Assembly (NCBI GenBank): GCA_964522405.1 | Contig: CAZFTR010000001.1 | Coordinates: 116,686 to 180,685, forward strand | Direction: 5' to 3' | DNA: 64,000 nucleotides | Origin: an uncultured Gammaproteobacteria bacterium | Lineage (GTDB): Bacteria > Patescibacteriota > Patescibacteriia > Magasanikbacterales > UBA922 | In this document: piece by piece, positions 1 through 55,602 of the stretch | Numbering within the stretch: the first letter of the stretch is position 1 | Layout: each line of letters starts with the position of its first letter | Notes under the pieces: generated by a model | Database searches by the model: none | What the model was told of the DNA's origin: nothing | The model's input: only the letters and a program-made list of their open reading frames with translations | Program-made: the position numbers and the translations under genes

Positions 1-33
1 CCCGGCATATCCGGGGGTTTATTTTTGAATTTG
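1..33 (+). terminator. Rho-independent terminator hairpin (CCCGGCATATCCGGG + T-run) ending a gene upstream of the window
   Basis: Seen directly: 5-bp GC stem cccgg/ccggg, 5-nt loop, followed by gggtttattttt. Confidence 0.5.
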
Positions 34-39
34 GGCGTT

Positions 40-302
40 CGCAGAGCGAGCGCCCGGGTAACCAGTCCGCCATGAACGTCTCGCCCGGTCAGGGGTGAGG
101 AAGTTTCTAGGCGATCCGGGGCTGATGAGGAGTTGCTTGTGCGGGCTGTTTGCCCGACTTGCCGCTCCCCGAGTTGTCGGGGACGCTGAAGGCTGGGGTG
201 CCTTCGCGCACACAGATCGGCTGGCCGCCACCTCGCGGGAACAGTACGTCCCCAAATATGGTGCCGCCAGCAGTATCATCCACTACTACCAGAGAACTCA
301 TG
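40..302 (-). other. GC-rich transcribed segment of unknown function behind a consensus promoter; either a leaderless small ORF (about 64 aa from ATG at 301) or an ncRNA
   Basis: Sharp compositional switch from AT-rich to GC-rich. On the minus strand there is TTGACA (332-337), a 17-nt spacer, then TATACT (309-314). A 5'-terminal ATG sits about 7 nt after the -10. No long ORF in any frame. Confidence 0.35.
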
Positions 303-308
303 AGCAAA

Positions 309-337
309 AGTATACATAAAAAAATTCACTTTGTCAA
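309..337 (-). promoter_or_regulatory. Sigma70-like promoter (TTGACA-17-TATACT) reading into the GC-rich segment at 40-302
   Basis: Hexamers and spacing read directly from the sequence. Confidence 0.5.
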
Positions 338-10662: not shown

Positions 10663-11133
10663 ATGTTTAAATCATCAGAACCTCAAATCTCAAAACAAGA
10701 TACACAAGCAAAATCTTCTTCTGATAGTGTTGAGACAGTAGTAGGGCCATCAGTGGTGGTGGAGGGTGATTTTTCTTCTGAGGGTAATATTTTAGTAAAA
10801 GGAACAGTTTCAGGAAATGTAAAAACAGCGCAACTGCTCACTGTTGAGGCTGGGGCAAAGATTTTGGCAAATGTAAAGGCACATGATGCTCTGATTTCCG
10901 GAGAAGTAAAAGGTAATGTCCGAGTAAATGAGAAGCTTGAACTAACAGAATCAGCAAGAATTAGAGGAGATATATCTTGTAAGGTTTTGGTTGTTGCCGG
11001 CGGAGCACTTTTACAAGGAAAAGTCGGTATGAAAGGAATTGAGATTGCAGGCTCTGGAGCAGAAAAGAAAAAAACTCCAAAAGCCAAACCGAGTAAATCT
11101 GTTTCTGATTTAGAGATCAAACCATCTTCATAA
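10663..11133 (+). CDS. Bactofilin-family cytoskeletal protein
   Basis: Repeating beta-helical pattern (VVEGDFSSEGNILVKGTVSGNV ... ISGEVKGNVRV ... IRGDISCKVLVVAGGALLQGKV) and a Lys/Pro-rich C-terminal tail. Confidence 0.7.
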   Translation: MFKSSEPQISKQDTQAKSSSDSVETVVGPSVVVEGDFSSEGNILVKGTVSGNVKTAQLLTVEAGAKILANVKAHDALISGEVKGNVRVNEKLELTESARIRGDISCKVLVVAGGALLQGKVGMKGIEIAGSGAEKKKTPKAKPSKSVSDLEIKPSS

Positions 11134-11177
11134 AATAGATTGATTCTATTTTATTATCATCTTTCTAAAGGATAGAT

Positions 11178-11939
11178 ATGTACGTATACCTATATGACAA
11201 TTTTCTCAAGCAAAAACGCTATGAGAATGTTTTGAAGTCAATTGAAACCAAATTGACTGATTATGGTATTGCTGGTAAGATTATCCGACTGCAAAATTTC
11301 ACTAATGCCGAGTGGGTAATAGAAGATGAAATTAGAAAAGGTGCCAAAACAGTAGTAATTGTGGGTAATGATGTTACTTTTGGACATGTTTTATCACGAG
11401 CAGCTGCAAGCAATGTAATTTTTGGATTTCTTCCGATAGGTCCGCAAAATTCTATTGCTGAAGTTCTTGGAATTCCCACTGATGAAACTGCTGCAGATGT
11501 TTTGGCAAGAAGAAGAAAAGTAAGACTTGATGTGGGTTGGTTTAACAATCGTTATTTTATTTCTCAGCTGTATATAGAGCCAAGTAATATTGCAGTTGAA
11601 TATGATGAGAAATTTAAAGTTTCCAGTAAAAGTAAAAAAATGGAATTAGTAGTTTGCAATCTCCAGCCTTTTCATTGGAAGAAAAAGGGTAAGGACAATG
11701 TAGTTCATCCGCAAGACGGTAAACTTGAGGCATTTCTACGGCCAATGGTAAAAACTAAGCTTTTTAGAAAAGCAGAATTTGAAGATCCAAGTATTTTTCC
11801 ATTTGAAGAAATGATAGTTAGCAGTAAAACTCCTTTTCCTGTAAAAGCAGATGGGAAATTATCCAAAGAGACAAAAATAACAATTAAGCTAGCCAAGAAG
11901 AGAATAAATATGATTGTTGGTGGAGCCAGGAAGTTTTAA
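11178..11939 (+). CDS. DAGK_cat / YegS-like lipid kinase-family protein
   Basis: VVIVGNDVTFGHVL (GGDGT-like) and LPIGPQNSIAEVLGIP (lP.GtgNdfar.lgip-like) motifs. Confidence 0.55.
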   Translation: MYVYLYDNFLKQKRYENVLKSIETKLTDYGIAGKIIRLQNFTNAEWVIEDEIRKGAKTVVIVGNDVTFGHVLSRAAASNVIFGFLPIGPQNSIAEVLGIPTDETAADVLARRRKVRLDVGWFNNRYFISQLYIEPSNIAVEYDEKFKVSSKSKKMELVVCNLQPFHWKKKGKDNVVHPQDGKLEAFLRPMVKTKLFRKAEFEDPSIFPFEEMIVSSKTPFPVKADGKLSKETKITIKLAKKRINMIVGGARKF

Positions 11940-11958
11940 GAGTTTATAATTAAATTAA

Positions 11959-12041
11959 GCGCGAGTGGTGGAACGGTAGACACGCAGGCTTGAGGGGCCT
12001 GTGCTCGCAAGGGTGTGGAGGTTCAAATCCTCTCTCGCGCA
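11959..12041 (+). tRNA. tRNA-Leu (anticodon GAG), type II with a long variable arm
   Basis: Hand-folded: acceptor GCGCGAG/CTCGCGC, 3-bp D stem, anticodon stem CAGGC/GCCTG with loop TTGAGGG, long variable arm, T arm GGAGG-TTCAAAT-CCTCT, discriminator A. No encoded CCA. Confidence 0.8.
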
Positions 12042-12097
12042 CAAAAAAAGCAAGGTTTCTGGCCTTGTTTTATTATTTACGAGATAAATTGGGAGTC

Positions 12098-12136
12098 GGG
12101 CGACGCGTCTGAGGGGAACCTCAGACGCGTCGCCAC
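12098..12136. repeat. Perfect 16-bp GC-rich hairpin (GGCGACGCGTCTGAGG-GGAA-CCTCAGACGCGTCGCC) at the distal edge of island 2
   Basis: Read directly; marks the AT/GC boundary next to the tRNA-Leu. Confidence 0.6.
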
Positions 12137-12422
12137 ACTCGCCGTCCTTGCCTGCGCTGTTGCGCAGACCCGCGTGGTTGGGGCGCCGTGCACCCCTTCC
12201 TTGCCTGGCCGCCGAAGCGACCTGTCGGTGCCCGGTATGGTACCGGAGCACTCCTGGCGTCGAAGCGCTCATCGTGGTGTCTCGCCGTTGCGATTCACCG
12301 GAGTCGGCGCGCTGGCGTGCGCCATTCTCGAGATGACCCTTGCAGTCGGTGCCGTCAGCAGGTGACGGCGGTTCCGTTGCCTTGAGCGATCATCTGTGCC
12401 CCCGAAGAGGCCTTCGGCGTGG

Positions 12423-13286
12423 CTACCAGCTGAAGCAGAAGTCGCTGCTCGTCGCCGTGTAGCCCGCCTCGTCGCAGCAGCCCGCGGTCACCCCGTTCGG
12501 GTTGTCGCCGCCCGCGCCGTAGTCGGTGTTCACGTCCTCGTTGGTCGCCGCCGTCACGTTCTCCGCCGCCGCGGTGGCCGTCTGGTTCAGGTTGTGCGGG
12601 AAGTCGCCCGTCGCAGCCGTCGCCGTGTTGGTCATGCCCGAGTTGCCAGTCTCCACCGTCTCGCCGCCGCCCGCGCCGTAGTCGGTGTTGCCCAGGTTGG
12701 CCTTGTTCGCGTCGAAGTCCGCCGTACCGCCGGTGTCGTTCGCCGCGTTCGCGCCGTAGTCGGTGTTCACCACCATCTCGATCTGGGTCGCGCCGTAGTC
12801 CACCAGGAAGGGGATGTCCACAGCCAGCGTGGTGTCCACCCGCATCAGGATCGCGGTCGCGCCGTGCTCGCCGTAGTTGTCCAGCATGGTCGCCCAGATC
12901 GCCGTCGCGTTCTCCGTCGCTGCACCCGCGTTGTCGTGCATCCACTGCCAGCCGTCGAAGGCCACCGTCTCGCGCGCCGCGCCGTAGTCGGTGTTGGTGC
13001 CCATGATGAGGTGCGCCAGCTCGTCGTCGGTCAGGGCCGCCTCCCGGTTCATGGCGAACCAGTTGTTGGCCGCGTCCAGCAGAACCCGGTTGCTGTTGCC
13101 GTCGTCGACGAAGGTCAACAGCAGGTTGCCGTTGAAGTCCACGTCCACCGTCAGGGTGGTGTGGGCCGGGGCGTCGACCTGATCGATGGTCGGCGTGTCC
13201 GGCTCGGCAGCCGCGATGCTGGTGGGCAGCACCAGCAGAAGCAGGACCGCGAATGCGGCCGTCAGGAACGAAAGTCTCCGTCTCAT
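12423..13286 (-). CDS. Secreted protein with six copies of an N(T)DYGA motif; high-GC codon usage
   Basis: N-terminal signal peptide (MRRRLSFLTAAFAVLLLLVLPTSIAAAEP). Repeated GTNTDYGAA, NTDYGANA, NTDYGAGG (x2), VDYGAT, DNYGEHGA. C-terminal Cys cluster CCDEAGY...FCFSW. RBS GGAGG sits 10 nt before the ATG. Third codon positions are almost all G/C, unlike the flanking genes. Confidence 0.7.
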   Translation of the reverse strand: MRRRLSFLTAAFAVLLLLVLPTSIAAAEPDTPTIDQVDAPAHTTLTVDVDFNGNLLLTFVDDGNSNRVLLDAANNWFAMNREAALTDDELAHLIMGTNTDYGAARETVAFDGWQWMHDNAGAATENATAIWATMLDNYGEHGATAILMRVDTTLAVDIPFLVDYGATQIEMVVNTDYGANAANDTGGTADFDANKANLGNTDYGAGGGETVETGNSGMTNTATAATGDFPHNLNQTATAAAENVTAATNEDVNTDYGAGGDNPNGVTAGCCDEAGYTATSSDFCFSW

Positions 13287-13351
13287 CTTAGGAATTCCTC
13301 CACAAGGTCATCAACTTCCCGCGCCAGGTTTGGTTCGGGATTGCATTATCC

Positions 13352-13380
13352 ATTATATGATTTTTTTTGAGAGTGTGCAA
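13352..13380 (-). promoter_or_regulatory. Consensus sigma70 promoter (TTGCAC-17-TATAAT) driving the secreted repeat protein
   Basis: Minus strand: -35 at 13375-13380, -10 at 13352-13357, 17-nt spacer, located in AT-rich DNA. Confidence 0.55.
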
Positions 13381-13481
13381 GTATTGTAAGAGAAAGCGAT
13401 TTTCCAACAATGAAATTTGTCAAATGATTTGTTTTTTCTTAACTGAATTTTTATTATTTGCTATAATGATAATATTAAAAA

Positions 13482-13870
13482 TTGAAAATTCAAGCATTGA
13501 GATTTCAATTAGAAGATTTTTTAAATTTTATGGATGAATATTCAACAGCTGGTCAAATTATGTATTGGCTAGTTATGCTCGCTCTCTATCTTTATCAGGG
13601 TTATGCATTTTTGATAATTGCCAAAAGAACAGGTACTGCCAATGGCTGGATGGCATTTATACCGATCCTAAATGTTTTTTTGATGCTAAGAATTGCTAAA
13701 AAGCCTCTATGGTGGTTTCTTTTGCTTTTAGTTCCTCTTATAAATATTATTTTTAATTTTGTTGCTTATTGGACTGGCAAGATCTCTGAATAAATCTCCA
13801 TGGTTTGGGATTTTATTGATGGTTCCAATTGTTAATTTAGTTGCTCTCGGGTATTTGGCTTTTAGTGAGA
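13482..13870 (+). pseudogene. Small multi-TM membrane protein gene interrupted by a frameshift near 13790
   Basis: The 103-aa ORF ends at 13793. The downstream +1-frame text translates to ...KSPWFGILLMVPIVNLVALGYLAFSEN*, a hydrophobic continuation typical of this small membrane-protein family. Confidence 0.45.
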
Positions 13871-13887
13871 ATTAGAAAAAATAAATT

Positions 13888-13918
13888 AAAAAACCACGGA
13901 TTAAACCGTGGTTTTTTA
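13888..13918. terminator. Bidirectional hairpin terminator (AAAACCACGGATTAAACCGTGGTTTT)
   Basis: Perfect stem flanked by A/T runs on both sides. Confidence 0.6.
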
Positions 13919-13921
13919 ATG

Positions 13922-14318
13922 CCTTGTCCATTAAATAAGCCGAATTCTGTATCCTTGCAAGCAAGGTAATGATCATTTCTCTGGTTCCAGTGTTGCCACT
14001 AGAATCTAACGAGCTAACTTTTCGAATTCTGAAATTCAGAAAACGCTGCTCTTTCTCCAGGTAGGGTTTACCACCCTGACATAATGTCAGGTAGTATGGT
14101 AGCTTTTGACTCGAGATCAAAAACATCCATACTCTTTTCACCTTTCATTTTGCGAAGCAAAATTAGTATAGTCTCTGCGGCACTTTCCCGTCCATACTTG
14201 TCACCAAGCCGGAGGTGGGCGTTACCCACTACCATGACCCCGAAGAACTTCGGGGGGAGTTCGGACTTTCCTTCCAGCTCCCAAAAGGAGCCAGGCGATC
14301 ATTTATAATGAACAAGAC
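13922..14318 (-). ncRNA. rnpB: RNase P RNA (bacterial type)
   Basis: On the minus strand: GGAAGGAAAGTCCGAACTCC (CR-I/P4 5' strand), GGTGAAAAGAGTATGG, and ACAGAATTCGGCTTAT (CR-V/P4 3' strand). The 5' and 3' ends pair as P1 (GTCTTGTTCATTATAAAT with ATTTAATGGACAAG). Confidence 0.75.
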
Positions 14319-14423
14319 AAAGCTTAATATAGCATATTTTGGAGAGTTTGTCAAGTTGACCAAAGGCCTTTATTTAGGTAAAATAGCCTAGTAAGTAATA
14401 TTTTGTTGGTATAAAAGAAACCC

Positions 14424-15842
14424 ATGAAACGTTCTCAGGTGATACTAATGGTACTTCAGGTGCCGATCGACTATATTGTCTTGATTTTAGCAGGTATTTC
14501 AGCTTTTTATCTGCGTTTTTCTGATTGGGCTATTTCCATGCGACCGGTTGTTTTTGATATAACTCTTAGTGAGTTTACTGCTTTTGTTTCAGTTATATCC
14601 ATTGTTTGGCTAGTTATTTTTGCTATTGCCGGGCTCTATTCTGTAAATCCAAATAGGAAATTTTCCGCAGATATTACTCGTATTATTTTTGCTTGTTCTT
14701 CTGCGCTTGCTCTTGTTGCTGTTTATGTTATGTTCGCTCAGCAATTGTTTGATTCACGTTTTCTCGTAGCAGCTTCTTGGGGTTTTGCAATTGTCTATAT
14801 GATAATTGCCAGACTGCTTATGAGGGGTGTTAAATCTCTTATGTATCGACTTGGTTTTGGACAAAGACGAGTGGTTATAGTTGGTTCAGAAGAAGTTGCA
14901 GAAGCTATTAAAAATGAATTAGAAAAAAGACCAGAACTCGGATATAAATTTCTGGGTCAATTTAAGAAATTTGAAAAATCAATTATCCCTAAATTAAAAA
15001 GATTAAGATTAGATGAGTTGCTTTTTATAAATCCAAGAGCAGATGAACTTGAAAGTTTGCAAGCATTGGATTTTTGCAATGAAAATCATATTGTTTTTAA
15101 ATATTCTGCAGACCTTTTTGCGACTTACAGCGCAAATATGAGTGTGCATCCAGTGGCTGGAATTCCAATTGTTGAACTCAGAAGAACCAGGCTTGGTGCA
15201 TGGGGTAGAGTAATCAAAAGAATTTTTGATATTTTTATGAGTTTGTTTTTAATTGTTTTGTTTAGCCCATTGATGCTTTTGGTTGGTATTTTAATTATGG
15301 TTGAATCCGGTCGACCAGTTATTTACAAAAACGAAAGAGTTGGATTTAAGACTAGGAACTTCACTGCCTATAAATTTCGTTCGATGTTACAGAAGTATTG
15401 TACAGGTTCACAGTTTGGAAATGCTGGGAAAAAAGCAGAAAAGCATGAAGAAAAATTAATTGAAAAACAAAACTCAAAAGCAGGCCCGATTTACAAAGTA
15501 AAAGACGATCCCAGAATTACTAGGATTGGAAGTTTTATTCGCAGATTTAGTATTGATGAGTTACCACAATTTTTTAATGTTTTGATGGGAAATATGAGTT
15601 TGGTTGGACCGCGCCCTCATCAGCCGAGAGAAGTTGCTGGTTATGAAAAACAGCATAAATCAGTTTTCAATGTTAAGCCTGGAGTTACCGGCTTGGCGCA
15701 GATTTCCGGTAGAAGTGATTTGAGTTATGAAGAGGAGATGAAGTTGGATATTTTGTATATTGAGAGATGGAGTATTATGCTTGATTTGGTTATTTTGCTC
15801 AAAACTCCCTTTGTCATATTTAAGAGTAGGAAAGTTGTTTAG
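14424..15842 (+). CDS. Polyprenyl-phosphate hexose-1-phosphate transferase (WbaP/WcaJ-like initiating sugar transferase)
   Basis: N-terminal TM helices and a C-terminal bacterial sugar transferase domain (PRPHQPREVAGY...VKPGVTGLAQISGRSDLSYEEEMKLDILYIERWSIMLDLVILLKT). Confidence 0.85.
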   Translation: MKRSQVILMVLQVPIDYIVLILAGISAFYLRFSDWAISMRPVVFDITLSEFTAFVSVISIVWLVIFAIAGLYSVNPNRKFSADITRIIFACSSALALVAVYVMFAQQLFDSRFLVAASWGFAIVYMIIARLLMRGVKSLMYRLGFGQRRVVIVGSEEVAEAIKNELEKRPELGYKFLGQFKKFEKSIIPKLKRLRLDELLFINPRADELESLQALDFCNENHIVFKYSADLFATYSANMSVHPVAGIPIVELRRTRLGAWGRVIKRIFDIFMSLFLIVLFSPLMLLVGILIMVESGRPVIYKNERVGFKTRNFTAYKFRSMLQKYCTGSQFGNAGKKAEKHEEKLIEKQNSKAGPIYKVKDDPRITRIGSFIRRFSIDELPQFFNVLMGNMSLVGPRPHQPREVAGYEKQHKSVFNVKPGVTGLAQISGRSDLSYEEEMKLDILYIERWSIMLDLVILLKTPFVIFKSRKVV

Positions 15843-18189: not shown

Positions 18190-19320
18190 ATGAAAATTGG
18201 AATAGATGCTCGCATGTTCGGACCAGAACAGGCCGGACTGGGGAGGTACATAGAACAATTGATTTTACATCTTGAACACATTGATAAAAGCAATCAGTAT
18301 ATTTTGTTTTTAAAAAAAGATAATTTTGAAAAATATATTCCCAAGAATCCAAATTTTGAAAAAGTACTTGCAGATATAAGTTGGTATTCATGGGCAGAGC
18401 AATTTAAATTCAAGAGAATAATAAAAAAACAAAAATTAGATTTGATGCATTTTCCACATTGGAATGTTCCAATTTTTTATCGAGATCCATTTGTGGTTAC
18501 TATCCATGATTTGATTATGTATCACTATCCGCGTCATGAGGCAAGTACACTTGGACCAATTAGTTATTGGTTCAAAGACAGAGCTTCACGAGTAGTTTTG
18601 AATCATGCCATAAAAAAATCAAGGAAGATTTTTGTGACCAGTGAATTTACCAAACATGACTTAAACAAAACACTGGGGGTGAATTTGAATAAAATGGTTA
18701 CACTTTATCAGGCCCCATTTTTCAAAGAGCAAAGAAAAAGAACAAAAGAAGATCAAAAAGAATTTTTTGAAAAATTGAAAATTGAAAAACCTTACTTGCT
18801 CTATGTTGGAAATGCTTATCCTCATAAAAATCTAGAGAGGTTGGTACAAGCTTGGAATCTTTTTACTCGACAACATGGATTACATTTTCAATTAGTATTG
18901 GCAGGAAAAAGAAATTTTTTTTATGATCGCCTGTTTGAAAGTGAAACAGTAAAATCAAGTAATGGAATTATTTTTACAGATTTTCTAGCAGATGATGATT
19001 TACAATTATTGTATGATCATGCTCAGGCTTTTATTTTTCCTAGTCTTTATGAGGGATTTGGACTTCCTCCAATAGAAGCTATGTACCATGGTCTGCCGGT
19101 TGCCTCTTCAAATCAAACTTCTTTGCCAGAAGTATTGGGACGCTCAGCAATTTATTTTGATCCAACTAATATCGAGTACATGGCAACAAGTATTTATAAG
19201 ATACTTACTGATCAGAATTTAAGGCTAAATCTACAGCAAAATTCAAAGTATGAACTTAGACGTTTTTCTTGGGGATCTCTCTCAAGTAGGGCAGTAAAAG
19301 TTTATCAATCAATAGTTTAA
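18190..19320 (+). CDS. Glycosyltransferase family 4
   Basis: PSLYEGFGLPPIEAMYHGLPVASS motif. Confidence 0.8.
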   Translation: MKIGIDARMFGPEQAGLGRYIEQLILHLEHIDKSNQYILFLKKDNFEKYIPKNPNFEKVLADISWYSWAEQFKFKRIIKKQKLDLMHFPHWNVPIFYRDPFVVTIHDLIMYHYPRHEASTLGPISYWFKDRASRVVLNHAIKKSRKIFVTSEFTKHDLNKTLGVNLNKMVTLYQAPFFKEQRKRTKEDQKEFFEKLKIEKPYLLYVGNAYPHKNLERLVQAWNLFTRQHGLHFQLVLAGKRNFFYDRLFESETVKSSNGIIFTDFLADDDLQLLYDHAQAFIFPSLYEGFGLPPIEAMYHGLPVASSNQTSLPEVLGRSAIYFDPTNIEYMATSIYKILTDQNLRLNLQQNSKYELRRFSWGSLSSRAVKVYQSIV

Positions 19321-19412
19321 TTTTTTTTCAAATATTTATAAACAGGTAGAGGGCTGCCTGTTTTTTAATAATAGCAATTTTATGCTATAATATAATAAAA
19401 TTTAAACTTATC

Positions 19413-21998
19413 ATGGCTAAAAATACCAAACAAAAAGGAGTCACAGCTCGAACCAGAAAAATTCAAAAGAGGGCAGCTTTGAGAAGGTGTTCTCTTTGTG
19501 CTCGTGTAGGTCATAATAAGAAGACTTGTCTAGAAAATGTAGTTTCTGCCACCAAAAAACCAATCAAAAAAACTAATAACCAATTTAGCAGAAAAAAAAT
19601 ATCTACTCCAAAAGAAAATATTCAAAAAAAATCAGCCAGCAAAGTTTCGCATATTTTTGTAAACGCTCATCAGAAAACTCAAGAGTCAAAACATATAATT
19701 GATTTGAGTAAGAACAAAAAAGATATTTGGTCTTCGATAAAAGCCTACAGTGAAGAGCCGGCCAAGAAAACTAAACGTCATACTTTAAATTTTGCTCAGC
19801 TTGTAAAAAGTGCAAATAGTCAAAAAACTAAAGTAGCAAAAAATTTACCAAAAACTGCTGAGAAAAGAATACATAGCAAACCATTGGCGCTAAATTCTTT
19901 TTTCAGAGTAAAAGAATTTTTATCAGATGCTTTTTTTTCAATTCAAAATTTTTTCACTATTCCTGCCAAGTATTTTGATTTCAAAAAATTTGCATACAGC
20001 ATGGTAGTTTTTTTATTTTTGGTTTCAATTCCATTTCCAGCTGCCGGAGTTTATCGACAAGTAAAGGATGATACAAATTATATTGTGCAGAGAAGTACAG
20101 ATGCTTTTTTGGCTTTACAGTCTTCAACAGTGGCAGCGCTCTCAACCAATATTGAACAAGCTCAATTTGATTTAAATGAAGCACTGAGTGCTTTTACAGA
20201 TGCGCAATCACTTATAGATCGAGAGTACAAAGCATTGACTTATGTTGCCAGTGCTTTGCCTGTTGTTGGAAAACGAGTTCAGAGTAGACAGCAGTTGCTA
20301 GTGGCAGGACATCATATAGCGCTTGGAAATACTTATCTGGTAAAAGGAATCGAAGAAGCAAGTGAAAAAGAAGATTTAAATAATACTGACAGAATTTCAA
20401 TTTTAAAAGTTCACTTGAGAAGCGCTTTGCCACAGTATCAAGAAGCATTACTTAATCTTGCCAATGTTGATCACAGTGCTTTGCCAGTTGAGTTTCAAGA
20501 ATCTTTTTCTGAATTTAAAATACTTTTTGCAACTTTTATAGATGATATCAATGATCTTTCTGAAGTTATGAGTGGGATAGAGAAAATTCTTGGCTCAGAT
20601 CAGTTTAAACGATACTTGGTTTTATTTCAAAATCATCATGAGCTTCGAGCTACTGGGGGATTTGTAGGAAGCTTTGCTATTGTTGATGTTCAGAAAGGAA
20701 GAATTTTAAACATAGAAATTCCAGGGGGTGGTAGTTATGATTTACAAGGATACTTGGATACTTATCTGGCTCCGCCGTTGCCACTTCAGATTGCCAATGG
20801 AAGATGGGAATTTCAGGACTCAAATTGGTTTGCTAGTTTTCCAGCATCAGCCGAGAAAGCTTCTTGGTTTTATGAGCATTCTAGTGGTCGGACTGTTGAT
20901 GGGGTAATTGCAATAAATGCTTCAGTTTTGGAGAGGTTGGTAAAAGTTATGGGCCCGGTTTACAATGAAAATTATGATTTACTTATTAATTCAGAAAATG
21001 CCTTGTCGCAAATACAAAGAGAGGTAGAGGTTGAATATGATCGAGAAATCAATCAACCGAAGGCTGTCCTTTCAGAACTTCTGGATCAGATGTTAGCTGG
21101 ATTAAAAGATATACAACCTGTTCGTTTGGTTGATTTGCTTTCACAGATGCATAGTGCTTTGACAGAAAAAGAAATTCAAATTTATATGACAGATGATTCT
21201 CTCCAAAGAGATCTTTCAGAATTTGGATGGACAGGAGAATTGCTAGAAGAAAATCAAAATCAGGATTATCTTATGGTGGTAAATACCAATATTGGCGGAG
21301 AAAAAACTGATGCCAAAATAGATCAAGCTATTGACCATCAATCTCATGTTCAGTCCGATGGATCAGTAATTAATACAGTTATTGTCAGGCGTGAGCATTC
21401 TGGTAATTCAGGAGAGCTTTTTTATGGAAAAGAAAATATAAATTACTTAAGAGTTTATGTTCCAGAAGGATCAGAGTTGATAGAGGCAGGAGGATTTAGT
21501 TATCCAGAAGAAGAATCTTTTATGGTGCCTGAACCATGGTATGAAGATGATCAGGATTTGGAAGAGATCGCTCAAACTGAGACTATTCACGTAGGAAGTG
21601 GTACCAGAATTACCAATGAGTTTAAGAAAACGGCTTTTGCAAATTGGATTGTAACCAATCCTGGAAAAACTACAGAAGTATATTTTGTTTACAGACTTCC
21701 TTTCAAAGTGTTGGATACAGAGATGGCTGAAAATAGTGATAGAAATATTATCGAAGATATAGCTATGCTGGCTGGAAACAAGCTTGAGAATAGTCAATTA
21801 TCGCATTATTCTCTACTTTCTCAGAAGCAATCAGGAACAAATGCAAAATTAAATTCAACAATTATTTATCCTGATGGTTGGAATCCGGTTTGGCGTACAA
21901 ATGATGATGTGCATGTTACCTTGAATGGCGCAACTTATAATACTGGTTTAAATACAGACAAGGTATACGGAGTAGTTATGAAAAAAATAGAAGAATAA
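19413..21998 (+). CDS. Large membrane-anchored extracytoplasmic protein (DUF4012-like) with an N-terminal CCHC zinc-knuckle-like motif
   Basis: Lys-rich N-terminus containing CSLCARVGHNKKTC (CX2CX4HX4C), a single TM segment (FAYSMVVFLFLVSIPFPAAGVY), and about 650 aa after the TM. The gene context matches the DUF4012 proteins found next to CPR glycosyltransferase genes. Confidence 0.45.
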   Translation: MAKNTKQKGVTARTRKIQKRAALRRCSLCARVGHNKKTCLENVVSATKKPIKKTNNQFSRKKISTPKENIQKKSASKVSHIFVNAHQKTQESKHIIDLSKNKKDIWSSIKAYSEEPAKKTKRHTLNFAQLVKSANSQKTKVAKNLPKTAEKRIHSKPLALNSFFRVKEFLSDAFFSIQNFFTIPAKYFDFKKFAYSMVVFLFLVSIPFPAAGVYRQVKDDTNYIVQRSTDAFLALQSSTVAALSTNIEQAQFDLNEALSAFTDAQSLIDREYKALTYVASALPVVGKRVQSRQQLLVAGHHIALGNTYLVKGIEEASEKEDLNNTDRISILKVHLRSALPQYQEALLNLANVDHSALPVEFQESFSEFKILFATFIDDINDLSEVMSGIEKILGSDQFKRYLVLFQNHHELRATGGFVGSFAIVDVQKGRILNIEIPGGGSYDLQGYLDTYLAPPLPLQIANGRWEFQDSNWFASFPASAEKASWFYEHSSGRTVDGVIAINASVLERLVKVMGPVYNENYDLLINSENALSQIQREVEVEYDREINQPKAVLSELLDQMLAGLKDIQPVRLVDLLSQMHSALTEKEIQIYMTDDSLQRDLSEFGWTGELLEENQNQDYLMVVNTNIGGEKTDAKIDQAIDHQSHVQSDGSVINTVIVRREHSGNSGELFYGKENINYLRVYVPEGSELIEAGGFSYPEEESFMVPEPWYEDDQDLEEIAQTETIHVGSGTRITNEFKKTAFANWIVTNPGKTTEVYFVYRLPFKVLDTEMAENSDRNIIEDIAMLAGNKLENSQLSHYSLLSQKQSGTNAKLNSTIIYPDGWNPVWRTNDDVHVTLNGATYNTGLNTDKVYGVVMKKIEE

Positions 21999-33219: not shown

Positions 33220-36200
33220 TTGCTGATTTTTATGTTTAAAAATCAAAATAGAAAATTAAAAACCTCATTGATAATACTGTTATCAAGTTTTGTTATTTTG
33301 GTTCCGGTTCTTGCCGGTTTACTAAAAATTGATCAGGCTCATGCTCAGGCCGCTGCAGCAGCAAAAGCAGCAGCAAAAGTTGCCACAGAAGCAGCATCAG
33401 GAGCAGCAAATTCAGCTCCGGCAGTGCCAACTCATGAGTTGAGTAGTGTTCCGAAGAAAATGCAAAAAATAGAAGATACTCTAGACGATACTTTTTTATC
33501 TACAGGACTTTCAGCTCTTATTAGTGGAGCTTCATATTTTTTAAACCGCCTTGCTTATGATGGTGCTAGGTGGATTGCTTCGGGTGGAAAAGGGCAGGGA
33601 GCACTTGCTTTTCAAGATGGATTTGGAGAGTACATCTTAAAAGTTGGAGGAGACAGTGTTGCTGATGCTGTTCAGCAGTTGGGAAATCCCTATGGATTAA
33701 ATCTCTGTAAACCCTCAAATTTAGATGTGCAGGTTTACCTGCAACTAGGATATAGAAAAGTTTATGATGGGCTTGGTGGAGAAGGTGGTCCTAAACCAAA
33801 ATGTTCATGGTCAGAGCTCAAGGATAAAATTGAATTTCAAACTTCAGGCGACGGAGTGCGATATTTTGGAGACACTATTGTCGAAGGTTTCCAAAACTCT
33901 TTTAGAGTTGAAGATAGTGATTTTGGAATTGCACTTGGAGCAGCTGGACAGCTAGACAGAATATATGCCCAAAAACAACAAGAAGCAGAGGGTGAACAAT
34001 TGGTTGGTGAAGGGTTTAAGCCACTTAAGAGTATGTTGTCTGGAAAAACTCTAACTCCGGCACAGATAATAAAAGAAGAAGCAAAATCTATTACTGCCAA
34101 ACATCAGGGTCAGATGACGGCTAATCAGATATCTGGAGTTTATGGCTCAGGAAGTATTGAGGCTCTGGTGGGTGCTGCTTCAATTTTTTTGACTACACTT
34201 ATATCTGATCTTTCCAAAAATATTTTAACTGATGGTTGGTTGACAGATCCTGGTTCAGGTGGAGGGGGTAGTTTATCTTCAAATACAGAAGTTGTAATCA
34301 ACGAATTTGCTTCAGCCATAAACCAAAATAGAAGAGCTGCAGAAAATGCCTTTAAATTTTTGTTTACAGCAGTTCCTGTTAAGCAGAGTTCCAGTTATCC
34401 GCTTTTGGATGATTTTGCCTCATGTCCTGATGATCCTGCTTTAAACCATCCTAAATTAACAAATTGTGTTATTGACCGAGCCTTTAGAGAAGCAATAGAT
34501 CGTGGAAACCAGGGGAGTAGTTTGACTATAAGAGAAGCCATGCTAAAGGAAAACGGAGAACTTCTCCACGGAGGTTGGCCTCTAATATCTCCTCTGAGAG
34601 AAGAAGAACATACAGAAGTAAAAGATTGTTATAGAAATGGATATTGCTACTCAAATATACAGAAATTGAGAAAAGCTCGTATCCTTCCTCTTGGTTTTGA
34701 GATCGCAGCCCTTCGTTCTGATCCGGATCAGCCCTGGACTCTTAAGCAGGTTGTAGATGGATTCAACGATTGTGCGGTTGATCCTGATTCTGGAAATATT
34801 GTCCAAAGTTCAAAAAAACCTTTTTGTCATTTGATTGATCCAAATTGGATTATACGCTTACCTGATCCGCGTTGTGAATCACTTGTTTATGGGCCAAATT
34901 TGATTTCCAATGCTGCGCCTACAAGACATAGTGAATGTGCTGATATTTCTACTTGTTTACTTGAAGATGAAAATGGCCAATGTATTGGTCAATATGGTTA
35001 TTGTCTAAAAGAAAAAAATGTCTGGAATATGCCGGGTCAATCTTGCCCTGCTCAGTTTAGCACTTGTGACACTTATACCAATACTAAGACTGGGAAAATA
35101 GAAAGCTTTTTATCAAGAACTGTAGACTATGATCAATGTACTAGTGATGCTGCTGGCTGTAGAGCATATAGTATTTACCAGGAAGACGGTGCATGGAGAA
35201 ATAGTAGTCAAACAGATGAGCTTTTAAAAACCAAAGGAGAGGCGCAAACCATGTATTTTGGAAAACTGGCAAGCCATGCAACTTGTCCTATTGATGTTGA
35301 TTTAAATGCTGATGGTTGTTCTGCATTTCTTCAGGTAACTTTTGACAGCGAAGTTGGTAATTATCAGAAAATAGCAGCTGCCACACCTCTTTATATGCAA
35401 AAGGCTCCAAATTATCTAGGTTGTTATGATACTGATTTATCTACCAAAGAAATTATAGATTGGCCAATTTCAGAAACTGATTTAACCCTTCTGACTGATA
35501 GACCTGAACAATGTGCAGACTATGCTCAGGTTTGTGTAGAAGATGAAGCAGGTTGTAGAAAATATCGCGCAGCTGAATCCGGAGTTCAAGACGTGGTTGG
35601 TATTGTGGGAGCAAATTCTTGTCCTGCTGAATGCGTAGGTTATGATACTTTCAAACAGGAAGAAAGTAATTTTGAACCTTCAATATTCCCAATGTATTTT
35701 ATTGCTGACGGTGTTGGGTCTAGAAGTTGCCCAGGACAGTATTCCAGCTGTTCAGAATTTACCAATATTGGCGCTGCCGGAGAAGGTGGAGAAGAGCTTG
35801 AGTATTTTGTTGATATTAAATATTGTGAAAAACCAGAAGAGGACAATGAAAAAACCTATTATTCTTGGGAAGGATCTGACAGTGCTGGATATGTTTTGAA
35901 AGTTCACAAAATGAAACAAATTGATCAAGAGGAATATACTTCTTATATTTTTAAAGTGGGTCAAGCAATTCAATTTAATCCTGGAGATAATTTAAGTTTT
36001 TATGAGATTGGATCACCGGCATATGCCAAAGATTCAGTAGAAAACTTAGAAGAATATTATCATGCTTGTAATGAGGAAAATTATAAGCAACTCATAAATG
36101 GAGAAAATCAGTTAGGAGATATAGACGAAGGTTGTGCTGCAATTTATGATAATGATGGAAATATTTATTATAGAATTTTATCAGAAACTGTAACTGTATC

Positions 36201-39200
36201 TGATCAATGTACACCTTATAGAAAAACTAATACTTATCTTGAATTGGATTCAGATTTAAATACTAGTGAACTTTGTTCATACAAATCAGGACTTTGGTCA
36301 GATGCTAATCTCAGTTGTGAGAGATGTTTCAATGGCGGAGAATATCTAGATGGGTCTTGTGTTTATTGGACTATTCCAAGTGAGTCTCTTTCATGTCAAG
36401 GTCCTGCAGGACAAGAAAATTTGTACAATGGTTGTCGAACTTATACTGGAAATGCAGTAAATGATCCTGTTCAGAAAATATTCTTTGATTTTGAACCTCA
36501 GCCATCTGATGATGATCCTGATGGTTTGAACAATGCCAAAGATGGTTGGTCTGTAGGAGAAATTACTCTTGACGCACAGCAAGTGGGACTTCATTCATTG
36601 CAAATTGATTCTGGTATTGTTGCTTTAGATGTGCCTGCTGAGATATTTACTGAGGATAAATGGTATGAATTAACTTTTTGGGCTAGAAGCGCTGTTGAAC
36701 AAAACCTAGTTGTGAAACTGATTCAGATTGCTCAGGATGTTGGCAATTTCAATTCTAATCCAAATATAGAAGGTGGGGAGATCCCAGTTAAAATAAATAC
36801 CAATTGGCAGGAATATAAATTAGGTCCGGTTCAATTTGCTGGAAGTACTGACTTGGAGGTGACGGCTATGTTCCAGGCAGTTTCTCTTGGGGTGAGTAGT
36901 GCTTATTCAATTGATAATGTTCGTATAGTGGAAGTTCCAAAATTTCACCGCATTAAAAATTCATGGCAACAAAAAGATACTGGTCCACTTGGTGAAGAGG
37001 TTGTTTTGGATGTTCCTTTGCTCTGTGACACTACACCTACTGATCCGTTCCCAGGTGAACATCTTGGCTGTAGTGCATATACGGACAAGACTGCAGATCC
37101 TGATCTGCCAGTCTATACTTCTGGATTTGAAAAATTGTGCAGAGTCAAAGCAGAAGGTTGTCGTCCTATAGTAGATACTTTTAATACAGTGAGCCATGAA
37201 GATCCGGGCAATCAAGATAATACCTTAACTCATGTATACAATGCATGGTGTGAGGAATTGGCAGAGGACATTTGTCAGGTTAAACACATTGATCAGGTAT
37301 TGGGAGAATGTCAGGTTGGAAAAGGTAAAAATGGTTGTTATATTCCAAAAATTGTCATTCCTGCCGGTGTGGAATTCAAAGATTTGTTAAATACCACAGA
37401 TTCAACAGTGGTTGTACCTGCTGATACAGAGGAAACTACACCAATTTATCTAACCTACAATACTGAGTATGCATGTTCTTCCAGCTTTATGGGTTGTAAA
37501 GCTGGTGCTCTTGAAGAGCAATCTCTACCAACAGAAAATCAAATTTCCTATGAGTTTAGTGAGCAAATGGTCTATGATAATCCGACTTTTTATGAACAAA
37601 CTCTTTGTAAATCAGAGGAGTTAGCTTGTGAAGAATACCGACATGGTAACAGTTTGGCTTACTTCAAAGATCCATATCTTACTGGTTCCAAACTGTGTAA
37701 ATATCGAGAAAATTTAGACTCAGGTGAGAACTATGGATGGTTTATGGAGGGTATAGGAAAATGTACTGGAACAGAAGATCTCTGTAGTTCAAGTGATGAT
37801 TGTTCTGAGGATGTTGCTTGTGATCTTGAGATAGATGTTCCTTGTTATGATAATTATCTGCAGGCTGGTGGAGAAAATGGCATTTGGTCAAATGATGCCT
37901 TATTTCATCCAATAACAGGAGAGAGTTTGTATGATGGTTTTGTTGGATTATGTGAATCACAATATAATAATTGTACTGAATATTTGGATCCACAGGATAG
38001 TTCTGGAGCTGATCCAGATGGTAAACCTTATTACGTTATAGCAGACAACCAATTGATTTCCGGTCAGTCTGAGTGTGCCGGACAGGTTAGTTTGCACGAG
38101 GGTTGTGTCTTGTTTGATCAAACAGACAACCCAAATAAGTTTTATGACAGTGAAGCAAGTTATAAGAAAAGCGCTGCTACAGATAATCCAAAATATCAAC
38201 CGGTTACACCAATTACCAGTGGTAATCTGGACGCAAATGTAGTATTGAAAGTTGAAGCTAATAGAAGCTGTAGCGAATGGTTGTCATGTAAAAATAGTAT
38301 CAAGATTACTGATGAAAATGGAATTCCAAAAAATGTTTGTAATGAATTCAAAGCTTGCAAGGAATCAGATGGTTCAGCGGGCTGTGCTAATTGGGCTGTT
38401 GATTCTGCTTACGAAACAGAGCCTTTGACTCAAGAGAAATATATTAAGCGTGATACATCCTGGTATGGAGAAGAATACACAGGATATTCACTGTTTGATA
38501 AATATCAGATTAGTAGTATTGCTTATGTTTCTGTAGAAGACGAGCCATTTTCATATATGGCTTACGAATTACATCCTGGAGTTGCTCCAAATAATAACTG
38601 TATAGGACAAGCTGCTTGGAGTAAATGTGGTTTTGATAATGGTGGTAGATGTCATAATGAAAAATGTATCTATACTATGAGCGGTCCTTTTTTACCTGAC
38701 TCTGATACAAAAGATGAAATCGTGGCAGAGTTAGAGGGCGGAACTTGTAAGGCTTTCCCAGAGGATAGTTCACCATATGATTTTAGTTTTGCAGAGCAAC
38801 CAACGCTTCATGAGACTGCCTATGATGACGGGCCTGATAGATATACTTTTGAAACCAAGAAAAAAGGATATGGTGGAGCAAATATTTGTCAGAGTGGAGA
38901 GAATTGCTCCTGTGAGTACAAGAAAATAGCTTATGGTAATGGTACAACTGATTACTTGAGCTATAGTGAAGATAAATATGCCAAAGGTGTTTGTACGGGA
39001 GGAGATTTTGCTCAGAAATCTTGTAGAATAAATTCTGACTGTGGTGCGGGTGGTTCTTGTAGTAGGATCACGAGTATTGAAACTCATATAGGTTTGAGGG
39101 GTCTGTGTATGGAATATGATTTGAGCAGACCAATAGACAAAGATAAGGATATTTACCCGTGTCTCACTTGGTTGCCGGTGGATACTGCGGCGACAGTTCT

Positions 39201-42200
39201 TGATCCATATAACAATGATCCAAAAGCAGGTTATCTACCACGGCTTGATGCCAGTGTTACTCTAGCCAATGGTTTTAAGAGTGAGTATGGACAAGTTTAT
39301 TGTAGCGAGGCATCAGGAAATGCCAAGGGTGCCTATGACATAGATGGATACAGAGAGATAACAAATGCAATTAACCAATCTACAGTTCCAAAATTTTCAG
39401 CCATATGTGATGGTAATCCAGATACTTTTGTTTGTAACAAGGACCTGTATAGTAATATGTTCAATGAGTATGGAGATTATATCTTTGATGAGAAAAAATG
39501 GGTAAGTATTACTGGTAATCCAGAGATAGCTTATGATGTTGGTGATGCAAATGCAGAATTTCCATTTACAGAAAAACTGCCTGTATTGCGTGATCCATTT
39601 AATGCTGGTTGGGGTGATAATTTTTCTTCTTTTAATACTTGGGAAGATGTGGAAGGATCCAAAACCACTATAATGCAAGGATTTTTTGAATGGCAAACTC
39701 GTCCACCGGCTACACCTGGTTCAGATGTGCTTACTGGCGCTAGTTTGTATCCTGATGATGACCAGAACAAGAATATATATAATTATCCGGATTTTGTCTA
39801 CTCCTTGGTTCAGCAATGGGCCTGGCATGGTGGTATGTATGGCAGAGGGTTGGCAGAAACCAAGGAATCCAAGAATATTATTTTGAATACCAAGAGTATA
39901 TCTGATCTGTGTGGAGATTTGATAGGTAAGGGGCAGCTATATACCGGTTGTGCAGACCTCTATAATTTTGCTGTAAATGCTCCAACTAAAACTCAGCAGG
40001 TTGAGTTATTAAAAGCTCTTCTTAACGCTCGAGTCAGTAGAATTTTAGCTGAAGATACCGAGGAAATTAAGCAGCAAGAAATAGTCAATCCAAATTCAAC
40101 TGTATTATTTACCTCAGCTCTTTATTTTAGGGATTACTTATATACTTCTTTGAAAAAAGTAGAAGAGATTGCGCCTGTAAAGGGTCTTGAAAGTAAAGGT
40201 CAGGATAAGAATAAATGGTATCTAGAAGATGAAGAGATGACCGAAGACTTGAATGGGGATGGTAAGGTTGATTATAAAGATATCACTGATCCTGAGTCTA
40301 TATTTTTGAGAGTAAGTTATGAACCGGTAGATTTTCATAGTTATACTCCGGGAACAATTGAAAAGGTCTTTGATTTTACAGGCGGCAGTAATAAAAGCAC
40401 AGATAAAGATGATCCAAATAATTATTTTTACAAGAGCTCAATTTGGGGGCATGCTACCAAGAAACTACGTGGTTATCATCCGGTCTTTTACAATTATGAA
40501 GCAGCAATAGAGGTTGTAGAAGATGAGATCAGTAAATTGCACTATGGACCAATGATGGCTCCAAATGGGATTGAAAGAGTTCTTACTATTGATTTTGATA
40601 CTCTTAATAATAGTCTGCCGCTTGAGTCAATCACAGCAAATGATGGGGTTTTGTACGATCTTAACTATTATTCAGAGGCTGTAAAAGGAGTTTATGTTTT
40701 TAAGGTAAGCCCAAGAACAGGTCCTAGAGCAGGTTGGTCACGATATATTATTATATCTATGGAAGACGGGGGATTTAGCGAAGATAAACCAGTGACTGAT
40801 TTGAGTCTTGATTTCTTTGTGGAGCTTCTTGACGAGTGGGCTGGAGATTCAAAATCCAAGTGGTCAAAGGGTGTGGATTGGATTGACGAGGATTTGGGAA
40901 ATAGATCACTTATTTGGGTCTGGGCTGATTTTGATGAGAAAGGTAATATGTCCGATGATTTCATAAAATCAAACTACCAAGCTTGGTATCAAAATACTAA
41001 AAGTATTTTTGTCTACAGTTCAGAGTTCAATGCCAAAGATGGAAAAACTCCTTTCTTGGCAGTTGTAGCAGAGACACATCCAAGATGTACAGAATTCCAG
41101 GTTGTTTATGATAGTGAAACCGAAGGGCTGGGCGGTTCAACTAACAAGGCTTGGACTGATAGAGTTTGGAATTATTCTAATTATCAACCGGGAACTACCT
41201 TTTTCTTTGGTAATAAATTAACTAAGCCGGCCTTTTCTCGACCTTTTGGTTCATTGCAATTAACTGCTGATTCTTTTGAAGGTACAAATGCATCAGGTTT
41301 GAGTTGGGAAGATGCCAGACGCAGATACACCTTTAGATCACCTGAGTTTGATGGTATACCTTATTCATGTGACGCAACAGCTCTAGAGTCAGAGCAGACC
41401 GCATTCAATCAAGGTAACTTTTTTAATGAAGGTTTGATGTATGATAATCCAGATTTTATTGGGCTTATAGAGTGGGGTGAACAAAAATGTATAGCGTCTT
41501 ATGGTGGAAATAATGAACTATATAACACCATGTCTTTTGTTGAGGCTGAAAATGGTATAGATATGCTATCTCAATTATTTAAAAAATCATTTACCTCTAT
41601 TAGAGCAAATGAACAGGGAGAAAATAAATTTGGTATTAAAGGAGCAATTGATCCACAGAATTCACTCTTTGTGAAGGAAGTTGGATTTGATGGTTCATCT
41701 ACTGCTGAGGCAGGTCTAATTCCTCCACAAATATATTCACTAAATCCAACCACTTGTTATGATTATACCGGTGGTAAAATTAATTGTACTATTGGAGAAG
41801 CAGATAATATAACCATAAACAGAAGAAATTTCATGTTAGAAGATTATGATGATGATGGATTTTATGATGAAGATCTAAATGGTGATGACTTGCCTGATCT
41901 GATAATTGCAGAAAATTCATTTACTGCTGTTGCTCATTTCTTTGCTTATGCTGATCATAACCGCATGCCTATTCGAAGAGTAATGGTTGATTGGGGAGAT
42001 GGAGATATTTCAAATCAAGATAGAAAGGGAATGTATAAGAATAGAAAACCATATTGTATTGGTGTTGGTAATGAGCAGAGTCCAGATATTGGAGAGTGTT
42101 CTCAGTCTGAGCAATTAACTTGTCTCAAAGATTCAGATTGTCCTTTGGCAGGAGAAACTTGTGATTTGAATGCAGCCAGGCATTTTGGAAATTCAGATAG

Positions 42201-42636: not shown

Positions 42637-42666
42637 ACAAAAAATGACCTACAAGGTCATTTTTTA
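42637..42666. terminator. Bidirectional terminator (AAAAAATGACC-tacaa-GGTCATTTTTT), copy A
   Basis: Perfect stem with A/T runs on both sides. Confidence 0.65.
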
Positions 42667-42697
42667 TTTAAAATATTTTTGATTTTTTTAATAAAAA

Positions 42698-42798
42698 GGG
42701 CCGTGCCGAAGCGCGTCCACGAGTTCACCGAAGTGAGACTTGTGGGCGCGCTTGGCTTGGCGTGCGACTGCTGAGAAAACGAGTTCGACTGCCGTGTA
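42698..42798 (-). other. Conserved GC-rich structured 3' element, copy A (nested about 60-nt helix with a CGAA tetraloop)
   Basis: gccgaagcgcg / ccacgag / tcac-CGAA-gtga / cttgtgg / cgcgcttggc nested pairing; about 75 nt identical to copy B at 43657-43761. Confidence 0.5.
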
Positions 42799-43326: not shown

Positions 43327-43500
43327 CTCCTTGCAGTAGCAGCCGGAGCTATAGTGGAATTTCCACTACACTTCTAGCTACCACTAGCAGGAGTTTTTTG
43401 TCGCACGCTATAGATCTTGCCTTTTGGCTAGGTTTAGCCAAGCAGACAAAGATATTGAAAAGAGCTTTTAGTCATCAAAGACTGATAAATATTAGACTAT
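43327..43500 (-). promoter_or_regulatory. Conserved 5' leader, copy A, with palindromes (TAGTGGAA-A-TTCCACTA; GCTAGTGGTAGC; TTGGCTAAACCTAGCCAA) and an upstream TTGACA-17-TCTAAT promoter-like site
   Basis: Nearly identical to 44278-44450. The palindromes were read directly; the promoter call is weaker (the -10 is non-consensus). Confidence 0.45.
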
Positions 43501-55600: not shown

Positions 55601-55602
55601 AC

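Follow-up and report, generated by a model that had tools for sequence, protein, structure and literature searches.

A GC-rich, hairpin-dense non-coding tail between an ORFan gene and tRNA-Leu(GAG) in a Candidatus Magasanikbacteria genome

The window analysed here, a 64-kb stretch of contig CAZFTR010000001.1, comes from an AT-rich host genome (36% GC) with a few sharp GC-rich islands. The second of these, island 2 (~12085-13345, ~1.25 kb, 65-70% GC), comprises a minus-strand gene and, 3' of its stop codon, a GC-rich non-coding tail that extends towards tRNA-Leu(GAG). An earlier note, made from the letters of the window, had singled out this tail as possibly a separate non-coding RNA (ncRNA) or a structured stabilising or processing element. 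Here we describe the tail, the insertion to which it belongs and the readings that can be placed on it. The features of the locus are the following.

11959 to 12042, plus strand: tRNA-Leu(GAG), the host gene flanking the insertion (ARAGORN; Rfam RF00005, 53 bits)
12047 to 12071, both strands: bidirectional intrinsic terminator of AT-rich host type, CAAGG-n7-CCTTG, with T runs on both strands (terminator scan)
12085 to 12422, minus strand: the tail, GC-rich and non-coding, 338 nt, 67% GC; putative 3' untranslated region (UTR) of the cassette mRNA, with about ten consecutive sense-strand stem-loops by RNAfold
12423 to 13286, minus strand: GC-rich ORFan coding sequence (CDS), 864 nt, 287 amino acids, with a signal peptide and five NTDYGA-like repeats
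13287 to 13345, minus strand: 5' UTR, with the ribosome-binding site (RBS) GGAGG (13297-13301) 10 nt 5' of the ATG
13352 to 13379, minus strand: predicted sigma-70-like, host-type promoter, TGCACA-16 nt-TATAAT, in AT-rich DNA just outside the GC-rich segment

The cassette and its insertion site

The CDS ends in a TAG (12423-12425, minus strand). The earlier note had drawn the tail from 12050 to 12420; the GC-rich tail is real, but that lower bound takes in ~35 nt of host DNA, as positions 12043-12084 are AT-rich and ~15 nt of AT-rich sequence separate the tail from the terminator at 12047-12071. GC at third codon positions (GC3) of the CDS is 95% in a 36% GC genome (0.60/0.48/0.95 by codon position) and stays at 0.83-1.0 in local windows throughout. 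The tail has the same overall GC as the CDS, and its GC by codon phase is flat (0.71/0.64/0.66), which points to non-coding DNA of the same foreign origin as the CDS. No 120-nt window of the tail has 3-base periodicity, stops are present in all six frames, in-frame continuation past the TAG halts after 10 codons and Pfam matched none of the open reading frames (ORFs) called in it. The earlier assessment that the tail contains no plausible ORF was thus borne out. The tail also holds no tandem repeats, no tRNA or tmRNA (ARAGORN) and no promoter-like site (promoter scan). Its sense strand, with 116 C and 110 G, is highly structured and does not fit a Rho-dependent, rut-like region (C-rich, G-poor, unstructured).

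When 5.8 billion protein clusters were searched by word index, and 1.84 billion representatives exhaustively with HMMER, the 287-amino-acid protein matched only itself. A back-translated scan of either metagenome or viral contigs yielded no relative, no Pfam or NCBIfam family matched, and the AlphaFold model (predicted local distance difference test score 36) was uninformative. Judged by its sequence, the protein is a true ORFan, predicted from its signal peptide to be secreted.

A scan anchored on the upstream DAGK-like gene (11178-11939) gave 80 related loci (60-79% protein identity), most of them titled Candidatus Magasanikbacteria or other Patescibacteria. The remainder are titled 'uncultured Gammaproteobacteria' (L003, L021-L025 and others) despite Magasanikbacteria-type synteny, and these labels appear to be wrong. 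In most of the 80 loci tRNA-Leu(GAG) lies 3' of the DAGK-like gene, and the order DAGK-like gene, tRNA-Leu(GAG), RNase P RNA is likewise kept in most of them. RNase P RNA adjoins the tRNA in many Magasanikbacteria loci (L003-L082), in plus or minus orientation depending on the species, and the gap between the two is a repeated insertion site of unrelated genes across the same set. Usually ~40-150 nt long, this gap holds unrelated genes in ~14 of the 80 loci; in the window it measures 1.9 kb and contains the GC-rich island and a small host-like DUF5684 gene. This context had been missed in the earlier note: the tail belongs to a 1.25-kb foreign insertion in a tRNA-Leu/RNase P hot spot.

Both junctions of the island were reproduced at 100% identity in independent Logan assemblies (SRR8146440, SRR8146441 and SRR31802803). 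Logan contigs of SRR8146441 and SRR31802803 match 12095-15156 and 12198-13466, respectively, and contigs of SRR8146441 and SRR8146440 match 10860-12116 and 10924-12117, all at 100%. De Bruijn contigs from two read sets end inside the 12093-12140 palindrome described below, as such assemblers do. An assembly chimera was ruled out by the recurrence of both junctions in independent read sets.

The island itself contains one ORFan CDS and no integrase. The neighbouring genes examined are housekeeping or cell-envelope genes and include no integrase, transposase or reverse transcriptase, and neither a direct repeat of the tRNA 3' end (att-like) nor a target duplication flanks the island across 11940-14000. 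The whole island had no blastn match in plasmid and phage collections. A host-type promoter, RBS and terminator bracket the GC-rich segment. Taken together, the tail is most likely the 3' part of a foreign 1.25-kb insertion in an AT-rich Candidatus Magasanikbacteria genome, and we infer that the cassette came from a donor.

Hairpins and folding of the tail

The principal stem-loops of the tail are listed here from the tRNA-proximal end; sequences are those of the sense (minus-strand) RNA unless stated.

12099 to 12134, minus strand: terminal hairpin with a 16-bp perfect stem, GGCGACGCGTCTGAGG/CCTCAGACGCGTCGCC, and the loop GGAA on the plus strand (UUCC in the sense RNA)
12152 to 12167, minus strand: hairpin CUGCGC-AACA-GCGCAG, a perfect stem of 6 bp
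12180 to 12196, minus strand: hairpin GGGGUGC-ACG-GCGCCCC, 7 bp including one U.G pair (RNAfold minimum-free-energy and centroid structures)
12207 to 12222, minus strand: hairpin GGUCGC-UUCG-GCGGCC, with a C(UUCG)G tetraloop and one U.G pair (RNAfold)
12232 to 12246, minus strand: hairpin CCGGUA-CCA-UACCGG, 6 bp with a 3-nt loop (plus strand CCGGTA-tgg-TACCGG)
12322 to 12395, minus strand: composite stem-loop with the outer stem AGAUGAUC.../...GGUCAUCU, enclosing a 7-bp hairpin, GCCGUCA-CCUGC-UGACGGC (12351-12369)
12402 to 12417, minus strand: hairpin CCGAAG-GCCU-CUUCGG, 6 bp, 6-21 nt past the stop and without a U-tract; alternative fold GCCUC-UUCG-GGGGC

The hairpins that the earlier note had read by eye are present. 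GCCGTCA-gcagg-TGACGGC lies at 12351-12369 and the 16-bp stem with its GGAA loop at 12099-12134; the CCGGTA hairpin is found at 12232-12246, although its parse with a loop beginning at a single t was slightly off, the true loop being tgg (3 nt). The terminal hairpin extends beyond its perfect stem to 22-nt arms (12093-12140, 91% complementarity), has a predicted energy of -44.6 kcal/mol and ends 2 nt before the GC-to-AT boundary. It has no U-tract, the sequence right after the 16-bp stem being CGACUCCCAAUUUAUC, and it is located 289 nt 3' of the stop codon. The segment that contains it (12045-12145) has an RNAfold z of -9.1.

Hairpin density set the tail apart from its surroundings. Five perfect hairpins of at least 6 bp occur in it; dinucleotide shuffles have 0.68 (P=0.002), pieces of the neighbouring CDS of equal size 0-1, and one 71% GC contig 0.5-0.8 per 338 nt. 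The description of a GC-rich, hairpin-dense stretch 3' of the CDS stop on the minus-strand transcript was thereby confirmed, as was the remark that the tail greatly exceeds the length required of a terminator. Folding of 12045-12425 with RNAfold, a check that the earlier note had proposed, gave z=-6.7 on the minus strand and -4.8 on the plus strand, much of it due to the large palindrome. When the 16-bp hairpin was left out, the remaining 285 nt still folded better than every one of 200 shuffles on the minus strand (z=-3.3), and on the plus strand 15 of 200 shuffles did as well (z=-1.6). Two hairpins, at 12180-12196 and 12207-12222, form fully on the sense RNA only, as they need G.U pairs. In 150-nt windows the proximal tail reached z of about -2.9, which is inside the range of the CDS of the same island (+2.2 to -4.5). 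The tail is therefore hairpin-dense, with a modest sense-strand bias in folding. Pairing between the 5' UTR/RBS and the tail was marginal (RNAduplex, -56.6 compared with -50.0 +/- 3.7 for shuffled tails; P=0.05).

Searches for relatives of the tail returned nothing beyond sub-threshold Rfam hits on the palindrome. At gathering thresholds, Rfam 15 recognized only RNase P and four tRNAs in the whole window, so that the proposed Rfam check assigned the tail to no family. A permissive scan of 11900-13450 had STnc400 as its best match (33 bits, compared with a gathering threshold of 80), centred on the palindrome, and the other permissive matches, symR and miRNA-like, also fell on the palindrome only. 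No second copy of the tail was found by blastn-short or nhmmer in the rest of the 64-kb window or in the 80 related loci. It is unique in that set, with no sign of a repeated palindrome of the repetitive extragenic palindromic (REP) or miniature inverted-repeat transposable element type, and the exact hairpin pattern had no match in metagenome and viral contigs. No hairpin inside the tail qualifies as a classical L-shaped terminator (stem-loop followed by a U run); the only one is at 12047-12071, outside the tail. This element serves tRNA-Leu on the plus strand and, on the minus strand, is likely to be the last terminator that the cassette mRNA reaches.

The tail as the probable 3' end of a foreign transcript

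The reading that we favour, at a probability of roughly 55%, is that the tail constitutes the untranslated 3' portion of a small foreign high-GC cassette (~12085-13345) lodged between tRNA-Leu(GAG) and the RNase P RNA. Transcription would start at the host-type promoter (13352-13379), pass through the 864-nt ORFan CDS and continue into the 338-nt tail. The RNA would end either at the 16-bp U-tract-less hairpin (12093-12140) or ~25 nt further on, at the shared bidirectional terminator (12047-12071), giving a 3' UTR of ~370 nt. On this account the tail would have arrived with the gene as non-coding DNA of the donor, its composition not yet shifted towards that of the host. The terminal hairpin would halt or pause the polymerase before it ran antisense into tRNA-Leu, or block 3'-to-5' exonucleases, or do both, with the host terminator 25 nt on acting as a backstop. 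The sense-strand hairpins, including those with C(UUCG)G loops, would be of the type of U-tract-less terminator used by high-GC bacteria.

Within the tail the terminal hairpin is most likely the part kept by selection, and the ~230 nt between the stop and this hairpin are probably without separate function. For the hairpin at 12093-12140, a role in stabilising or terminating the mRNA is plausible. The foreign DNA stops at the foot of the terminal hairpin, an arrangement that would fit trimming of a streamlined genome by deletion as far as the last element of use, with the proximal 230 nt possibly untrimmed as yet. Because GC3 of the CDS is still 95%, the insertion looks young, and the persistence of the tail therefore says little about function; in the context of a foreign insertion, its GC content and length need not reflect function either.

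Several known systems offer points of comparison. Stem-loops at mRNA 3' ends can act as stabilisers, as do REP-type hairpins at the ends of operons and the 'positive retroregulator' of Bacillus thuringiensis cry genes, and a very stable hairpin at the 3' end of the cassette transcript could similarly block 3'-to-5' exonucleases. REP elements, however, are present in many copies per genome, whereas the window and the related loci contain the tail hairpin only once. Long regulatory 3' UTRs are known from bacteria, among them those of Staphylococcus aureus icaR and Salmonella hilD, and the tail resembles these in length (~300-400 nt) and in its position 3' of a monocistronic gene; of the pairing with the 5' UTR/RBS that defines the icaR type, the complementarity here is only marginal.

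Terminators without a U-tract (I-shaped) have been described as the predominant intrinsic type in high-GC mycobacteria, where the criterion is a stable hairpin without a U run within ~50 nt 3' of the stop (PMC12288462). The tail resembles these terminators in its GC-rich sense-RNA stem-loops 3' of the stop without a U run, the first of them 6-21 nt past the stop, and in that its largest hairpin stands at the end of the foreign segment. The likeness is divided between two hairpins: the one at 12402-12417 lies within 6-21 nt of the stop and lacks a U run, yet has only 6 bp, whereas the 16-bp hairpin is 289 nt away instead of within 50 nt. The host also differs, being an AT-rich member of the candidate phyla radiation (CPR) whose own terminators are classical, with a U-tract. 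We infer that the terminal hairpin (12093-12140) would function as an I-shaped, U-tract-less terminator or as a 3' stabiliser. As for the insertion, horizontally acquired islands beside tRNA genes have been described in Patescibacteria (PMC12455944), and island 2 is similarly DNA of foreign composition beside a tRNA gene in a variable region. It differs from those islands in being 1.25 kb long with a single gene and in having no integrase, att repeat or identifiable donor.

Other cassettes and alternative readings

GC-rich islands of similar plan occur elsewhere in the window and in its relatives, with a GC-rich CDS for a secreted protein or lipoprotein followed by a GC-rich non-coding tail of ~60-330 nt. 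Those in the window are given first, followed by single-gene islands of related loci, identified by locus.

1 to 311, minus strand: island 1
42687 to 43330, minus strand: island 3
43642 to 44320, minus strand: island 4
10872 to 11750 of L027: GC-rich single-gene island
18888 to 19270 of L080: GC-rich single-gene island
18640 to 19570 of L071: GC-rich single-gene island
19110 to 19720 of L069: GC-rich single-gene island
6023 to 7000 of L045: GC-rich single-gene island
11250 to 12400 of L067: GC-rich single-gene island
13830 to 14570 of L048: GC-rich single-gene island

The cassettes of the relatives have GC3 values of 0.69-0.88 in genomes of 32-42% GC, each with a GC-rich hairpin tail; several of their proteins have a signal-peptide- or lipoprotein-like N terminus, and most lack a Pfam family. 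The tRNA-Leu(GAG) hot spot is also where the L027 cassette lies, in the opposite orientation to island 2; its GC3 is 0.88 and its protein is unrelated to that of island 2. In 6 of the 12 cassette tails measured (window islands 2, 3 and 4, and L080, L048 and L045), 1-8 nt separate the end of the strongest hairpin from the GC-to-AT boundary that follows. The L080 hairpin is a near twin of that of island 2, at -45.6 compared with -44.6 kcal/mol, with a 4-nt loop and no U run. In the independent tails taken together, eight copies of the motif CUUCGG are on the sense strand and one is on the antisense strand (binomial estimate ~0.02), a sense-strand excess that is an RNA-level signature.

The earlier note had likened the tail to the 3' element of island 3. 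The two are alike in architecture, each GC-rich cassette having a strong hairpin at its 3' edge, but the likeness does not extend to sequence similarity or a common structure. An all-vs-all comparison of cassette tails linked only islands 3 and 4, besides chance 9-mers, and alignment with MAFFT followed by RNAalifold yielded zero consensus pairs among six tails; the proposed comparison with island 3 thus showed no shared structure.

Conservation could be followed in two places. The orthologous cassettes of L071 and L086, the only such pair available, have ~88% CDS identity and differ by a 53-nt indel just past the stop, with the hairpin and the host flank kept. Islands 3 and 4 (42640-43480 and 43600-44440) are tandem paralogous units of leader, lipoprotein CDS and tail. 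Their CDSs have 66% amino-acid identity, a synonymous divergence (dS) of 0.48, a nonsynonymous divergence (dN) of 0.215 and a dN/dS of 0.45, with GC3 of 0.84-0.87; the ~160-nt leader and promoter are 97-100% identical and a 40-column tail-hairpin block is 100% identical. Flanks so much more conserved than synonymous sites point to gene conversion or to strong UTR constraint. No Rfam family matched the long, structured leader at the 5' end of these two units. Where sequences can be compared, in L071/L086 and in islands 3 and 4, the terminal hairpin appears as the conserved part and the proximal tail does not.

The L071 cassette protein (18758-19570, minus strand; orthologue at 98-862 of L086) has a Stig1 cysteine-rich domain. 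Those of its homologues with an organism name belong to the Myxococcota, namely to Labilithrix and other Myxococcales; a homologue is also found on a contig of 71% GC (L087). A high-GC bacterial origin is plausible for at least this cassette, with transfer from a high-GC lineage into CPR bacteria.

Further observations concern other parts of the window. Island 1 has a 61-amino-acid GC-rich ORF (118-301, minus strand) that starts 7 nt past a TTGACA-17 nt-TATACT promoter, and its mRNA may be leaderless; its tail of ~90 nt is GC-rich, with a 10-bp hairpin (34-56), and adjoins a host terminator (1-27), the region being confirmed by Logan contig L083. Directly upstream of islands 3 and 4 is an ORF of 3134 amino acids (33220-42624) with a TTG start and no Pfam domain. 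At 55380-55610, ~230 nt of non-coding sequence with ~55% GC lie by tRNA-Leu(CAA) (55638-55720, minus strand), with a terminator-like hairpin at ~55612-55635; this stretch has no Rfam match at gathering or permissive thresholds and may be an unannotated ncRNA.

Several points weigh against the reading of the tail as donor DNA carried in with its gene. No homologous locus with which the tail hairpins could be compared was found in the collections searched. About 15 billion proteins hold no relative of the cassette protein, which is odd for a recent transfer. Transcription of the tail and the position of its 3' end are predicted from signals in the DNA. Hairpin density in the tail is 6-10 times that of the one high-GC contig used as a baseline, so that simple carry-over of intergenic DNA may not fully account for the proximal 230 nt. 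Finally, the GC3 of 0.84-0.87 that islands 3 and 4 retain at a dS of 0.48 suggests that cassettes can be old; if they are, a non-coding tail of 67% GC would need constraint to persist.

The foremost alternative is that the whole tail is a functional, cis-acting 3' UTR, a multi-hairpin module for mRNA half-life, protein binding or release of a 3'-UTR-derived small RNA. Hairpin density well above shuffles, adjacent CDS and high-GC baseline speaks for such a module, as do the sense-strand folding bias with its sense-only G.U hairpins and UUCG loops, and non-coding flanks in islands 3 and 4 that are much better conserved than synonymous sites. We nonetheless consider it unlikely. In L071/L086 the proximal tail carries the 53-nt indel and the terminal hairpin alone is kept, pairing of the 5' UTR with the tail is at best marginal, no Rfam family was recognized and the z of the proximal tail (about -3) is within the range of CDS windows of the same island (to -4.5).

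A broader and still less probable version holds that Magasanikbacteria carry a class of single-gene, high-GC 'secretome cassettes' built on a common plan, whose non-coding ends are conserved and functional, the island 2 tail being an unusually long multi-hairpin 3' module. The plan would comprise a host-type promoter or leader, a foreign GC-rich ORF for a secreted protein or lipoprotein, a GC-rich tail and a U-tract-less hairpin exactly at the edge; 67% GC would be held against AT-biased mutation because RNA or DNA structure serves expression, stability or capture. The near-identical flanks of islands 3 and 4, the high GC3 that these two retain at a dS of 0.48, and the L071/L086 hairpin kept despite the indel can be cited for it.

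It is quite doubtful that the terminal hairpin is a boundary, recombination or mobilisation signal of a mobile cassette (attC-like or IS200/IS605-like), with the tail as mobility apparatus. Foreign DNA does end 1-8 nt past the strongest hairpin in half of the measured tails, the cassettes are single ORFs for secreted proteins or lipoproteins mostly without known families, a different cassette sits in the same hot spot in the opposite orientation in L027, and all four window islands are on the minus strand. Integron cassettes are comparable in having a single promoter-independent ORF, often without known relatives, and an inverted repeat at the 3' boundary. However, the tails share no motif except UUCG loops, and the stem of the island 2 hairpin is perfect, not bulged, with neither extrahelical bases nor, across 12085-12145, RYYYAAC/GTTRRRY cores of attC in the right position. 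The neighbouring genes examined include no integrase, transposase or reverse transcriptase, there is no target duplication or repeat of the tRNA 3' end, and the islands are scattered, not arrayed, each with its own host-type promoter. Host-like promoters and terminators at the edges fit trimming by deletion, not precise insertion.

Very improbable is an independent ncRNA gene, on either strand, that lies between the CDS and tRNA-Leu by chance. The tail is long, GC-rich and significantly structured, as such a gene might be, but it has no internal promoter-like site, no tRNA or tmRNA and a best Rfam score far below gathering, and no copy or relative was found in the window, the 80 related loci, plasmids, phages or viral or metagenome contigs; its composition is like that of the foreign CDS and unlike that of host ncRNAs. 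The separate ncRNA suggested in the earlier note thus gained no support from internal promoters, Rfam families, second copies or homologues in the collections searched. A decayed coding sequence, whether an extension of the C terminus lost to a frameshift or what is left of a second cassette gene, was rejected for the absent 3-base periodicity, the stops in all six frames and the missing Pfam matches, even though long open frames persist in high-GC DNA and the calls in the tail include several ORFs of 60-116 amino acids.

On the favoured reading, the tail by itself would be an element of a familiar type: a long 3' UTR, structured and with a terminal hairpin that lacks a U-tract, in a horizontally acquired cassette. 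Its significance is chiefly as a marker: within an AT-rich, streamlined CPR genome there are tiny units of 67% GC that encode secreted proteins without known relatives and are provided with host promoters and strong end hairpins; these high-GC ORFan cassettes of Magasanikbacteria are a more interesting lead than the tail itself. If the tails prove to be conserved, they would point to a new cassette system. If the terminal hairpins do terminate or stabilise RNA in an AT-rich host, the expression of foreign high-GC genes in CPR bacteria would be explained. The donor lineage might also give a clue to the partners of these episymbionts, the named homologues of one cassette being Myxococcota.

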